In this document: positions 20,625 to 52,072 of the stretch, piece by piece
Numbering within the stretch: position 1 is the first letter of the stretch
Layout of the letters: every line of letters starts with the position of its first letter
DNA from: Candidatus Saccharimonadales bacterium
GTDB lineage: Bacteria > Patescibacteriota > Saccharimonadia > Saccharimonadales > 2-12-FULL-41-12
Direction of reading: 5' to 3'
Assembly: GCA_025451045.1 (NCBI GenBank)
Contig: JANWLD010000001.1
Span: 471,468 to 535,467, forward strand
Length of the DNA: 64,000 bases
Program-made: the position numbers and the translations under genes
The notes under the pieces: model-generated
Told to the model about the DNA's origin: nothing
Database searches by the model: none
What the model saw: the letters and a program-made list of their open reading frames with translations, nothing else

Positions 20625-21253
20625 TGGGCCAGAAAGTAAATCCGATTAGTTTCCGTCTTCAGGTAAACAAACACTGGAAGAGCAAATGGTTCGCTAATAA
20701 AAAAGACTATGCGGAGTATCTGACACAAGATTTGACGGTCAGGCGGATGATAGTCAAAGAACTGGGCTCCCGCGCGGCTATAAACAAAGTTGACATTGAA
20801 CGCTCGCCTAACTTGGCCACTGTTACCATCACCACGGCCAAAGCCGGTGTTGTTATCGGCAGAGGCGGTACAGGCGCCCAAATACTAAAAGACCGAATTG
20901 AGAAAATCTACGGCGTACCGGTCAGGATTAACATTGAAGAAATCAAAAAAGCGGAACTTTACGCGAAGCTTGTCGCTGAGAATATTGCCCATCAGCTGGA
21001 AAGAAGAATTTCCTTCCGCCGGGCTATTAAACAATCTGCGGCCGCGACCATGCGGGCTGGAGCAAAGGGTGTACGTATCGAAGTAGCCGGCCGTCTTAAT
21101 GGCGCGGATATGAGCCGCCGCGAAAAAGTGGTTGAAGGCAGCGTGCCATTACACACTTTGCGTGCCGATATCGATTACTCGGGTGTCAGGGCCCGCACTA
21201 ATGCCGGTATCATTGGCGTGAAAGTTTGGATTTATAAAGGAGAGGTGCTCTGA
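20624..21253 (+). CDS. rpsC: 30S ribosomal protein S3
   Basis: 209-aa S3 translation (MGQKVNPISFRL..., a KH domain, GRLNGADMSR). Confidence 0.97.
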   Translation: MGQKVNPISFRLQVNKHWKSKWFANKKDYAEYLTQDLTVRRMIVKELGSRAAINKVDIERSPNLATVTITTAKAGVVIGRGGTGAQILKDRIEKIYGVPVRINIEEIKKAELYAKLVAENIAHQLERRISFRRAIKQSAAATMRAGAKGVRIEVAGRLNGADMSRREKVVEGSVPLHTLRADIDYSGVRARTNAGIIGVKVWIYKGEVL

Positions 21254-21378
21254 TGTTCCGCTTCACTACACACCAGGTTATAGGTTACAGGTTACAGGTT
21301 ATAGTTAAGACAAACCATCTAGCCCCTTGCACCTATAGCCTGATCCCTAAAGCGACCGAAGGGAGCTTTCCATGCTGA
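21253..21378 (+). repeat. Family A structured repeat, copy A1 (divergent), containing an open 41-codon mini-cistron
   Basis: The ATG overlaps the rpsC TGA (TGATG). The frame is open to a TGA at 21376-21378, overlapping the rplP ATG (21372) by 7 nt. Peptide: [41 protein letters not shown]. It is homologous to the copies at 24072, 25606 and 29631. Confidence 0.85.
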
Positions 21379-21788
21379 TTCCGAAACGCCAGAAGCACCG
21401 ACGAGTGATGAAAGGTCGTATCAAAGGCCCTGCTACCAGTGGCAATACCATTGCCTTTGGCAGCTATGCGCTGCAGTCTATGGGCCAAGACCGGGTTACC
21501 AGCCGCCAGATAGAATCAGCTCGCCAGGCGATGACCCGCTATATCAAACGAGGCGGTAAGATCTGGATAAGGATTTTCCCTCATACTCCTGTTACTAAAA
21601 AACCGCTGGGCCTTAAGATGGGCGGCGGCAAAGGCTCTCCTGAATACTTTGTAGCAAAGGTACGCAAAGGTACAGTATTGTTTGAAATGCAAGGCGTTTC
21701 CGAGGAAACAGCCCGCGAAGCCATGAGGCTGGCTGCCCACAAATTACCGATAAAGACCAGGTTTATTGTCAGAGAGGGCGAAACATGA
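21372..21788 (+). CDS. rplP: 50S ribosomal protein L16
   Basis: 138-aa L16 translation ([11 protein letters not shown]...). Confidence 0.97.
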
Positions 21789-21919
21789 ATCCCGTAGTAG
21801 ATCTCCTAGAACTGAAGTTGAGCAAGCTGTTTTTGTATGGCCGAGTGTCGGTACGTTATTCAGTTTTGTATATTTTTAATCTTCCTTATGGAATAACTAG
21901 GAGGCTCACTACAGGATGA
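21785..21919 (+). repeat. Family B structured repeat, copy B1, containing an open 44-codon mini-cistron
   Basis: ATGA overlap with the rplP stop and ATGA overlap with the rpmC start. Peptide: [44 protein letters not shown]. Terminal arms 21791-21809 and 21897-21915 are complementary, and the 3' arm contains the rpmC AGGAGG. Confidence 0.85.
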
Positions 21920-22116: not shown

Positions 22117-22509
22117 ATGGGTAAGACATTAGTAGGGACTGTAAGTTCAGTCGCGCCGAATAAGACCATAGTAATTGCTGTTAGTACCCGAAAAACCCAT
22201 CCTATTTACAAAAAACAGTACAAAGTCACTACTAAATTCATGGCTCATGACGAAGAAAATTCGTGTAAAGTCGGTGACCTTGTCAGCATTGTCGAAACGC
22301 GGCCGATTTCTGCTAGAAAACGCTTCAAATTGGAAAAGATTTTGGAACACGCAAGGTTGAGCAAAGATGATTTGAAGGTTATGAATACGGACGAACCCGA
22401 AAAGAAAGCAGACAAGCCGTCAGAAAAAGTGGAGAAGAAGGATTCAACCGAAAAAACTGAGGATAAAGCGGATAAAAAGGCTTCATCGGACAAGGAAAAG
22501 GGCAAATGA
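22117..22509 (+). CDS. rpsQ: 30S ribosomal protein S17 with K/D/E-rich C-terminal tail
   Basis: S17 core (GTVSS...KTIVIAV...YKKQYKV), followed by a low-complexity tail of about 50 aa. Confidence 0.93.
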
Positions 22510-24071: not shown

Positions 24072-24191
24072 ATGTTCCGCTTCACTACACATCAGGTTAC
24101 AGGTTATAGGTTACAGGTTATAGCCAAGATAAACTTTCTAACCCCTAGCCCCTATAACCTAACCCCTAAAGCGACAGAAAGGAGCACCTAA
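24072..24191 (+). repeat. Family A structured repeat, copy A2, containing an open 39-codon mini-cistron
   Basis: The ATG lies 5 nt after the rpsN TAA, and the TAA at 24189-24191 abuts the rpsH ATG. Peptide: MFRFTTHQVTGYRLQVIAKINFLTPSPYNLTPKATERST. There is a perfect 10-bp stem between 24101-24110 and 24151-24160. Confidence 0.88.
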
Positions 24192-25120: not shown

Positions 25121-25255
25121 ATGAGTCCCGTAGTAGATCTCCAAGAACATTCGTTGAATAAACTGTATTTAACTGATAAGCTGTCTATCCATAGTCCAGC
25201 TTTATTAATTTCTAATGCTCTTTGCGGAGCAACTTGGAGGCTCACTACGGGATGA
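25121..25255 (+). repeat. Family B structured repeat, copy B2, containing an open 44-codon mini-cistron
   Basis: The ATG directly follows the rplF TAA, and the TGA overlaps the rplR ATG (ATGA). Peptide: MSPVVDLQEHSLNKLYLTDKLSIHSPALLISNALCGATWRLTTG. Terminal arms 25126-25145 and 25233-25252 are complementary. Confidence 0.85.
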
Positions 25256-25605: not shown

Positions 25606-25725
25606 ATGTTCCGCTTCACTACACATCAGGTTACAGGTTATAGGTTACAGGTTATAGCCAAGATAAACTTTCTAACCCCTAGCCCCTATAACCTAACCCC
25701 TAAAGCGAAAGAATGGAGCGCATAA
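25606..25725 (+). repeat. Family A structured repeat, copy A3, containing an open 39-codon mini-cistron
   Basis: The ATG directly follows the rplR TAG, and the TAA overlaps the rpsE ATG (TAATG). Peptide: MFRFTTHQVTGYRLQVIAKINFLTPSPYNLTPKAKEWSA. A 115-nt stretch is identical to A2. Confidence 0.88.
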
Positions 25726-26330
25726 TGGCTGAGATGAACAGAAGAAAAGATATTAAGCCGCTAGAGCTGGAAGAGAAGCAATTTGAAGAAAGGGTCGTGC
25801 ATATCGACCGCGTGGCCCGCGTGGTCAAAGGCGGACGGCGCTTCCGGTTCCGTGCCCTCGTGGTGGTAGGTGACAAGAAGGGACGGGTAGGCGTAGCTAC
25901 CGCCAAAGGCGCGGATGTTACCGCGGCCGTAGCCAAAGCAGTCGACGTGGCCAAGAAGAACCTGACTACTTTAGTACTTTATAAAGGCACTCTGCCGCAT
26001 GAAGTTCAGGCCAAAGTTGGCGGTTCGAACATTCTGTTGAAGCCTGCCAGCCCCGGAACCGGTATTATCGCCGGCGGCGTGGTACGTACGTTACTTGAAG
26101 TCGGCGGTGTCAGCAATGCCCTCTCCAAATCTCTCGGTTCGAGTAACAAGGTCAATACCGCCTATGCGACGCTGAAAGCGCTCAAAAGCGTAGTGCCAGC
26201 AGACAAGTGGATTACCAGAATCCAGACAAAAGCCAATAGTCCCAAGCTAAAAGCTAAAATAGAAAATCCGGAAAAGAAGACAGAGAAGAAAGTAACTGCC
26301 AAACCGAAAAAAACGGAAAGTAAGAAGTGA
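25725..26330 (+). CDS. rpsE: 30S ribosomal protein S5 with K-rich C-terminal tail
   Basis: S5 translation (VVHIDRVARVVKGGRRFRFRALVVVGD). The ATG at 25725 is preferred over the in-frame ATG at 25713, by analogy with the other family A junctions where GGAG precedes the start. Confidence 0.93.
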   Translation: MAEMNRRKDIKPLELEEKQFEERVVHIDRVARVVKGGRRFRFRALVVVGDKKGRVGVATAKGADVTAAVAKAVDVAKKNLTTLVLYKGTLPHEVQAKVGGSNILLKPASPGTGIIAGGVVRTLLEVGGVSNALSKSLGSSNKVNTAYATLKALKSVVPADKWITRIQTKANSPKLKAKIENPEKKTEKKVTAKPKKTESKK

Positions 26331-29630: not shown

Positions 29631-29753
29631 ATGATGTTCCGCTTCACTACACATCAGGTTACAGGTTATAGGTTACAGGTTATAGCTAAGACAAACCCTC
29701 TAACCCCTAGCCCCTATAACCTAACCCCTAAAGCGACCGGAGGGAGCTTCTGA
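29631..29753 (+). repeat. Family A structured repeat, copy A4, containing an open 40-codon mini-cistron
   Basis: ATGATG directly follows the rpsK TAG, and the TGA overlaps the rpsD ATG (TGATG). Peptide: MMFRFTTHQVTGYRLQVIAKTNPLTPSPYNLTPKATGGSF. Confidence 0.88.
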
Positions 29754-40500: not shown

Positions 40501-40583
40501 TGCAGGGTGTAGGATTCGAACCTACGAAGGCATAAGCCATCAGATTTACAGTCTGACGTGTTTGACCGCTTCACTAACCCTGC
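40498..40583 (-). tRNA. tRNA-Tyr (anticodon GTA), CCA encoded
   Basis: A hand fold of the reverse complement gives acceptor GCAGGGT/ACCCTGC, anticodon arm TCAGA-CTGTAAA-TCTGA, a long variable arm, T-arm GTAGG-TTCGAAT-CCTAC, and ACCA at the 3' end. Confidence 0.9.
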
Positions 40584-40656
40584 CCAGTAGTAGACTTTTG
40601 AGTATAATTGCTTTAAGCAATTATAAAGTAAAACTTTTCAAAAGCTCACTACTGGG
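40583..40656 (+). repeat. Family B-type imperfect hairpin, copy B3 (non-coding), in the tRNA-Thr/tRNA-Tyr spacer
   Basis: The 5' arm CCCAGTAGTAGACTTTTGA (40583-40601) and 3' arm TCAAAAGCTCACTACTGGG (40638-40656) reproduce the B1/B2 stem core GTAGTAGA / CTCACTAC. The interior carries the palindrome TATAATTGC...GCAATTATA. Confidence 0.75.
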
Positions 40657-51877: not shown

Positions 51878-51982
51878 GTCGCAAGGCCAAAGGTGTTAAA
51901 ATATTGATAGTTACCCGAAGACAGCGACGTTGTGAAAACACTTGAAAAAGTCGCCGAGGCGAATAAATAAGCTCTCAATAAG

Positions 51983-52008
51983 TCTTTGGTTTACGCCAAA
52001 GATTTTTT
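51983..52008 (+). terminator. Hairpin plus T6 in the rplJ leader (candidate L10-leader attenuator)
   Basis: TCTTTGG (51983-51989), loop TTTACG, CCAAAGA (51996-52002), then TTTTTT (52003-52008), located 65 nt upstream of the rplJ ATG. Confidence 0.55.
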
Positions 52009-52072
52009 AATGGTAACTGCTTTTGACCAAGGTCGAAGTCACAAGTTAACAGATAAAAGGAGAAGCCGCACT

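Follow-up and report, generated by a model that had tools for sequence, protein, structure and literature searches.

A MITE-like element inserted at start codons of a ribosomal-protein operon in a Saccharimonadales bacterium may act as a translational relay

Two palindromic elements, B1 and B2, interrupt the ribosomal-protein operon in the 64,000-nucleotide stretch of a Candidatus Saccharimonadales genome that we analysed (hereafter the window), one in front of the L29 gene (rpmC) and the other in front of the L18 gene (rplR). Both are insertions of a small mobile DNA element. We consider it probable that the family to which they belong, here called Family B, is a non-autonomous MITE-like element of the ultra-small CPR bacteria (Patescibacteria) whose Saccharibacteria subfamily acts as a translational relay. 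The coordinates of the elements and their parts are given in Table 1. The identities of the neighbouring L16, L29, L6 and L18 were confirmed by Pfam. B1 and B2 align without gaps over 135 nt, with near-identical ends and diverged middles, and no promoter or terminator consensus sites were found inside them.

Table 1. Positions in the window of the Family B and Family A elements and of their parts
Feature	Position	Strand	Remark
B1, 5' target copy ATGAA	21785..21789	+	Ancestral L29 start codon, now start of the B1 mini-ORF
B1, element, 127 nt, TCCCGTAGTAGA...CTCACTACAGGA	21790..21916	+	Covariance model match, 97.2 bits
B1, arms	21790-21809 and 21897-21916		
B1, GGAGG in 3' arm	21900..21904	+	11 nt 5' of rpmC ATG (21916); partner 21802-21806
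B1, mini-ORF, 44 codons, ends ...RRLTTG	21785..21919	+	TGA overlaps rpmC ATG (ATGA)
B2, 5' target copy ATGAG	25121..25125	+	Ancestral L18 start codon, now start of the B2 mini-ORF
B2, element, 127 nt, TCCCGTAGTAGA...CTCACTACGGGA	25126..25252	+	Covariance model match, 110 bits
B2, arms	25126-25145 and 25233-25252		
B2, GGAGG in 3' arm	25236..25240	+	11 nt 5' of rplR ATG; partner 25138-25142
B2, mini-ORF, 44 codons, MSPVVDLQEH...WRLTTG	25121..25255	+	TGA overlaps rplR ATG at 25252
Third, short Family B member, 74 nt, CCCAGTAGTAGA...CTCACTACTGGG	40583..40656	+	Covariance model match, 41.1 bits, E ~3e-6
Family A copy	21253-21371		S3/L16 junction
Family A copy	24072-24191		S14/S8 junction
Family A copy	25606-25724		L18/S5 junction
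Family A copy	29631-29752		S11/S4 junction

The insertion was recognised from related genomes in which the sites are empty. L16 proteins at least 90% identical to that of the window were found on three other contigs, which come from relatives that are not very close (73-80% identity of the rplP DNA). On the contig that carries the whole operon (L001), the L16/L29, L6/L18, S3/L16, S14/S8 and L18/S5 junctions are all uninterrupted, as are the L16/L29 and S3/L16 junctions on L053 and the S3/L16 junction on L054. The empty L16/L29 site on L001 and L053 reads ...GGGAGGGCGAATCATGAAAA, and the empty L6/L18 site on L001 reads ...AAGGATAAGTAATTATGAATCGT. At the L16/L29 junction, the empty form ...GGGCGAATC-ATGAA-AA corresponds to the filled form ...GGGCGAAAC-ATGAA-[TCCCG...CAGG]-ATGAA-AA in the window, and B2 is likewise bordered by ATGAG on either side. 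A symmetric reading fits all copies, in which the element extends from TCCCG to CGGGA and the target duplication is the 4-bp TGAA or TGAG (5 bp with the shared A). For elements of the T...A type inserted at the target A|TGAR, the terminal A and the duplicated TG remake the ATG of the interrupted gene; in B1 the final base A and the duplicated TG rebuild the start codon of rpmC. The old ATG and the old Shine-Dalgarno sequence (SD) are left upstream of the element, the latter being GAGGG for L29 and AAGGA for L18. The old ATGAA in front of B1 retains its overlap with the rplP stop codon (ATGA) and is still preceded by the ancestral GAGGG, and the old ATGAG in front of B2 abuts the rplF stop codon (TAAATG). 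Short direct repeats flank every copy; they are ATGAA or ATGAG in 19 of 19 copies of the subfamily of B1 and B2, and elsewhere they include the 4-bp CCTG at the third copy in the window, GTTGA and GCATG.

Relatives of B1 and B2 are spread over many CPR lineages. A scan of one genome per species with the pattern CCCGTAGTAG-N95-120-CTCACTACRGG gave 35 loci, almost all of them in CPR MAGs (labelled Saccharibacteria, Paceibacterota, Zambryskibacteria, Wolfebacteria, Kaiserbacteria, Uhrbacteria, Nomurabacteria or plain Patescibacteria), and a narrower pattern gave 16 metagenome loci, which makes about 50 relatives in all. Since many copies share descent, these counts are not numbers of independent events. 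The patterns demanded intact outer arms; decayed copies were therefore invisible to them, and the conservation of the arms results in part from ascertainment. All copies have the termini YCCCGTAGT...ACTACGGGR in common. Further common features are the outer stem, the mismatch triple AGA/CUC and an inner helix whose sequence varies by subfamily yet stays complementary (GATCTCCAAG/CTTGGAGG, AAAATGGCATT/GATGCCATTT, CCGAGCGCG/GCGCTCGG and AACTGCGAT/ATCGCAGT are examples), and the general anatomy is 5'-YCCCGTAGT(AGA)-variable helix-branched core-variable helix'-(CUC)ACTACGGGR-3'. The subfamilies other than that of the Saccharibacteria have no SD in their arms; those of them that are located at start codons show no conservation of frame, yet they persist.

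A covariance model built from the Saccharibacteria subfamily detected the short third member in the window. It lies between the genes for tRNA-Tyr and tRNA-Thr, both on the - strand, has neither an SD nor an ORF context, and contains a compensating A/T insertion in the outer stem. The model also detected several further copies on contigs L047 and L048, clustered on single contigs. With three copies in the 64-kb window and three genome assemblies that have two or three copy-bearing contigs each, the family occurs in multiple dispersed copies. As is expected for MITEs, the units are small (74-140 nt), their only ORF has 44 codons and gives no Pfam match, and they end in terminal inverted repeats, of which the outer 10-11 nt were imposed by the search pattern. 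Target duplications (TGAA, TGAG and CCTG) and empty sites (on L001 and L053) are present as well. No transposase-bearing unit with the termini of the family, and thus no autonomous partner, was found in the 446 kb examined. Since a CPR-wide family shares these termini and the flanking repeats, the stem is primarily a terminal inverted repeat, that of a MITE-like element, and a GGAGG in one arm therefore forces CCUCC on the other.

Size variants with the same termini were observed, namely a unit of 282 nt, the longest seen, whose inverted repeat of 23 nt is perfect (L013, 6075-6378), and a 75-nt unit (L041, 2930-3004). Three contigs carry labels from outside the CPR. In L024, labelled Bordetella sp., the element agrees exactly with that of the Saccharibacteria contig L013, as do ~12 nt of flanking sequence at either end, and the CPR element is also present in L011 and L020, which bear the label Spirochaetia; such contigs probably come from CPR bacteria and were mis-binned. 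Neither the Family B nor the Family A pattern matched in the viral contigs scanned, and a phage origin was rejected on this ground. The unit is small, its termini are inverted, its target is duplicated and the downstream start codon is complete, which led us to discard elements of the IS200/IS605 and REP/RAYT types, integron attC sites, group I introns and translational bypass as explanations. Rfam gave no match to Family B, either at the gathering score or at E-values up to 10, and in the relatives the corresponding positions lack the element; a cis-regulator of Rfam or an autoregulatory leader of ribosomal-protein genes was thereby rejected. Searches of the literature for the element by name, context and sequence words found no description, and the family appears to be undescribed.

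The terminal stem had been proposed in a preliminary description of this DNA, which was made from the letters of the window. Recomputation of the B2 arms gave the same gap-free pairing, with 16 Watson-Crick, 2 G-U and 2 A-C pairs. The B1 stem equals that of B2 except for one extra C-A mismatch and a U-A pair in place of an A-U pair of B2, so that both the compensatory swap and the C-A mismatch of B1 that had been pointed out are present in the aligned stems. In the predicted folds both elements are closed by the terminal stem. The predicted minimum free energy is -50.5 kcal/mol for B2 (z = -6.3; 0 of 200 shuffles folded as well) and -38.5 kcal/mol for B1 (z = -2.1; 4 of 200), of which the stem alone gives -28.3 and -22.5 kcal/mol, respectively, and the predicted unpaired probability of GGAGG is at most 0.03. 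When the 5' arm was masked in the folding model, GGAGG re-paired elsewhere and the SD was not cleanly freed. Thermodynamic modelling alone therefore cannot settle the mechanism.

Covariation of the termini, which had been proposed from the two window copies, held up among 42 distinct arm pairs from other genomes. Paired cells amounted to 86.9% as compared with 66.0% in shuffles, double-change cells numbered 188 as compared with 54, and the covariation score reached 0.528, whereas shuffles gave 0.121 and slid partners no more than 0.13; the outer 10-11 nt of each arm were set by the search pattern, and the covariation evidence comes from pair 1 and pairs 13-20 only. A 4-bp hairpin adjoining the 3' arm showed compensatory changes at all four pairs. 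The SD and its partner also change together, CCUCC/GGAGG being replaced by CCCCC/GGGGG in four copies and by CCUCA/UGAGG in one. The earlier suggestion that the CUCC of the 5' arm pairs with the GGAG(G) before the downstream ATG is thus supported for this subfamily, by the predicted fold and by the co-change.

CCUCC/GGAGG arms were found only in the Saccharibacteria subfamily, which comprises 19 distinct copies in MAGs labelled Saccharibacteria or Saccharimonadales. Every one of the 19 is inserted on an ATGAA or ATGAG with which a real gene begins, and in seven copies the ATGA also holds the stop codon of the upstream gene. The interrupted genes include those for GAPDH, an aminoacyl-tRNA synthetase and glycosyltransferases as well as def, nusG (after secE), secY, dprA and rsmD. 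The element together with the duplication measures 125, 128, 131 or 134 nt, that is, 2 mod 3, in 16 of the 19 copies. A mini-ORF of 43-45 codons whose TGA stop codon overlaps the real ATG, beginning 1 nt into it, is present in 12 copies, including B1 and B2, and in the remaining 7 of 19 the mini-ORF ends early, after 15-25 codons; full read-through is therefore not obligatory. The core of the element cannot be aligned among the copies, and it contains 17 stop codons in the mini-ORF frame as compared with 41 and 45 in the other two sense frames. It is open in the mini-ORF frame in 12 of the 19 copies but in the other sense frames in only 2 and 0, and among shuffled cores the mean was 2.4 open copies, with none of 2000 shuffles exceeding 9. 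The distance from GGAGG to the ATG is fixed at 11 nt in both element orientations, a spacing within the range of the other genes of this operon.

The encoded peptide shows no conservation. Between B1 and B2, 36 of the 85 core bases differ (9, 16 and 11 at the first, second and third codon positions), and the changes in the core codons are 22 non-synonymous and 5 synonymous, whereas the arms differ at 3 of 42 bases. Pfam searches with the products of the two mini-ORFs gave no match. Profile searches with the B peptide in both orientations, among 5.8 billion proteins, returned the window's own ORF and four homologues only, and these four are not called as genes elsewhere. A peptide family was rejected on these results.

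Relative to the interrupted gene, B1 and B2 are oriented opposite to all 17 other copies of the subfamily (L003-L051 compared). The orientation bias is strong, and in the AAAATGGCAT subfamily 8 of 8 copies have the window orientation. A TATAAT-like box was observed 7-12 nt before the old ATG at seven loci (L006, L018, L021, L026, L028, L031 and L035). This suggests that the interrupted genes there are leaderless or have short leaders, in which case the mini-ORF would be at the very 5' end of the transcript.

As we read the pattern of frame and stop codons, only ribosomes that pass in a single frame and finish on the real start codon would account for it. From the frame and stop-codon statistics only, we infer that the mini-ORF is translated and that translation of the downstream gene may depend on it. 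Since each window copy is an intact 44-codon ORF, the 5' arm represents codons 2-8 of a mini-cistron and not an untranslated spacer. In the proposed relay, a ribosome would start at the old ATG, either by reinitiation after the overlapping or abutting upstream stop codon or via the old SD. Translation of the ~44 codons would then unwind the ~20-bp stem, which would otherwise bury the new SD as well as the ATG itself. Termination at the TGA that overlaps the real ATG (ATGA) would finally allow the same ribosome or a fresh 30S subunit to initiate the synthesis of L29 or L18. The peptide would have no function of its own, and the copies with early stop codons would still have their 5' arm opened. 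Since the SD-less subfamilies show no conservation of frame, the relay would be an adaptation of one lineage and not a property of the whole family.

This mechanism differs from the one first proposed, in which a ribosome that terminates on the upstream cistron, or reads through it, melts the stem and exposes the SD. Dependence of the downstream gene on a ribosome arriving from upstream is still the most economical reading, but the ribosome at the stop codon would not be the one that opens the stem. The helicase of the ribosome is located at roughly +11 nt from the P site, so that no more than roughly the initial 5-7 nt of the arm would be within reach of a ribosome halted at the stop codon of rplP or rplF. 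Since such a ribosome would open only the first few pairs, the clamp would need the mini-ORF, and a ribosome translating it, to work. The idea of coupling is plausible, but the origin and the actor given in the preliminary description are wrong.

A layout of the same kind was found in a second palindromic element of the same operon. Family A is ~120 nt long (GGTTAYAGGTTAYAGG...CCTATAACCTAACCCC), is unrelated to Family B, and is present in four copies, all absent from the relatives. The copies contain mini-ORFs of 39-41 codons that abut or overlap the upstream stop codon and the downstream ATG, and they end in GGAGC. Homologues of the Family A mini-ORF are located between rpiB and rpe (L055 and L056) and after pilM (L057), with overlaps of 1 or 4 nt. 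Since Family A has the same layout in an unrelated sequence, the design of the mini-cistron recurs.

Apart from the insertions, the L30 gene is absent between those for S5 and L15 (rpsE ends at 26330 and rplO starts at 26327), which is typical of CPR genomes. S17 (22117-22509) has a Lys/Glu/Asp-rich C-terminal tail of ~45 residues and consists of 130 aa as compared with 102 aa in L001, being 28 residues longer. An L10 leader (RF00557) was detected at 51897-52017 with 45.3 bits, just above the gathering threshold of 44.

It is unlikely that Family B is a purely selfish MITE. On this explanation the stem would be a terminal repeat recognised by a transposase, or a DNA hairpin formed in transposition, and CCUCC/GGAGG and the mini-ORF would be by-products without translational effect. 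The same termini and a covarying inner helix are indeed found in the SD-less subfamilies and in the copy between the tRNA genes, and the left and right ends of a transposon would be expected to co-vary because one protein binds both. The structure is kept in both orientations. Moreover, the stem shows no excess of G-U on the sense strand, since outside the constant AGA/CUC triple G-U was counted 11 times and A-C 10 times; the stem itself therefore provides no RNA-specific signal. However, binding by a transposase explains neither the length of 2 mod 3 nor the depletion of stop codons in the mini-ORF frame only of an otherwise unalignable core. It is also difficult to reconcile with the restriction of GGAGG to the Saccharibacteria subfamily, at a fixed distance from the regenerated ATG, and with the location of 19 of 19 copies exactly on the start codons of housekeeping genes.

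A role in RNA processing or stability is rather improbable as the main explanation, although such a role may act together with the relay. The ~20-bp stem would be cut by RNase III or would guard mRNA ends, and would thereby divide the ribosomal-protein mRNA into segments, and cleavage of the stem by RNase III or protection of mRNA ends has been reported for Correia and ERIC elements. The stem of Family B is long, nearly perfect and co-transcribed, and members of the family are also located between tRNA genes, where processing is the rule. The sense strand also folds better than the antisense strand, a result that speaks for the relay as well. In 18 of the 19 subfamily copies the sense RNA is the more stable, by 5.5 kcal/mol on average as compared with 1.7 kcal/mol in coding-sequence controls (p = 0.004), a gain to which the shared mismatch triple contributes part, and for the core alone the sense strand folds better in 15 of 19 copies. 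A processing element would nevertheless leave the constraints on frame and stop codons, and the SD, unexplained.

The preliminary description had regarded the element as a built-in switch for L29 and L18, and in this form the proposal is not supported. A cis-regulatory RNA that evolved in the host to set the stoichiometry of these two proteins would agree with the position within a ribosomal-protein operon and with the sequestration of the SD in a strong predicted stem, and the six insertions formed by the four A copies, B1 and B2 in the 64-kb window all lie in this 13-kb operon. However, the same junctions are empty in three related genomes, which already contradicts such a switch, and elsewhere the same element precedes unrelated genes, is bordered by target duplications and matches no Rfam leader. 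We therefore consider a switch evolved by the host to be very improbable. It is hardly conceivable that the repeat is a duplicated small gene for a functional 44-residue protein, since, in spite of the intact ORFs, their good start contexts and the conserved N and C termini (MxPVV...TTG), the conserved ends are merely the translated arms, the core is unconstrained as described above, and the reversed copies encode a different peptide.

The combination of a MITE-like element with a translational relay can be compared with several known repeats. ERIC/IRU, Correia/NEMIS, RUP and BOX elements are non-coding, ~100-150 bp long, and have inverted termini and a short target duplication; they form a long hairpin in the mRNA, are co-transcribed within operons and can alter the expression of neighbouring genes. 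Family B shares with them the size, the inverted termini, the duplication and the hairpin, but it has no sequence similarity to them and matches nothing in Rfam, and to our knowledge none of them targets start codons, regenerates an ATG by its terminal base or keeps a full-length frame. Rickettsia palindromic elements are likewise palindromic and mobile, occur in reduced genomes and survive in expressed regions by means of an open frame. They are placed in frame within genes, whose protein product then includes them, whereas Family B, which also keeps its frame open, forms a separate mini-cistron at a gene boundary. REP and REPIN sequences are extragenic palindromes without target duplication, whereas direct repeats flank Family B, and the GTAG in its termini is a resemblance only.

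Mycobacterial interspersed repetitive units (MIRUs) of actinobacteria are direct repeats of 46-101 bp, often in tandem, and lack both a terminal inverted repeat and a hairpin. In contrast, Family B is a single palindromic unit that has inverted termini, duplicates its target and hides an SD within its own stem, its sequence is unrelated, and it belongs to another phylum; no tandem arrays of Family B were seen. In both cases, apparently mobile short repeats are located at start codons in operons and carry a small ORF, and the arrangement of start-codon insertion and an internal ORF coupled at -4 was found in 12 of the 19 subfamily copies. According to a 2025 review (PMC12548453), which cites Supply et al. 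1997, MIRUs are mobile repeats that insert at start codons so that their internal ORF and the interrupted gene are coupled at -4, and this coupling is read there as limiting the damage to expression. MIRUs are the closest known analogue. In E. coli rpmI-rplT, MS2 coat-lysis and phage f1 VII-IX, a helix holds the SD and AUG of the downstream gene, and its second strand belongs to the translated upstream ORF (PMC12548453). The unfolding by translation resembles that proposed for Family B, and the 4-nt overlap of stop and start is shared. Family B differs from these systems in that a single portable element carries the complete arrangement, the SD and the upstream ORF as well as the two strands of the helix, which thus did not evolve in place.

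Thus, two known kinds, a MITE and translational coupling, are combined in the proposed element. It is possible, and we put this forward only tentatively, that Family B represents an undescribed superfamily of MITEs of Patescibacteria that rebuild start codons, and that one of its lineages, together with the unrelated Family A, forms self-contained translational relay cassettes, each with a frame-locked mini-cistron, an SD of its own and a stem that masks this SD. If this is true, such a cassette can colonise even the ribosomal-protein operon of a 0.5-Mb genome, tightly coupled as it is, and leave it unbroken, and the expression of the interrupted gene would become strictly dependent on upstream translation. 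The feature is a mobile element and not a regulatory invention for L29 and L18, and its design would allow it to reside within essential, translationally coupled operons. Since the family is spread over many CPR classes, it also matters for the annotation of CPR genomes, in which the mini-ORFs now and then appear as hypothetical genes and operons are broken up by the elements. The natural copies vary in whether the mini-ORF is intact or truncated, in orientation, and in the presence or absence of the SD, and they would provide a ready series of variants for testing models of unfolding and reinitiation.
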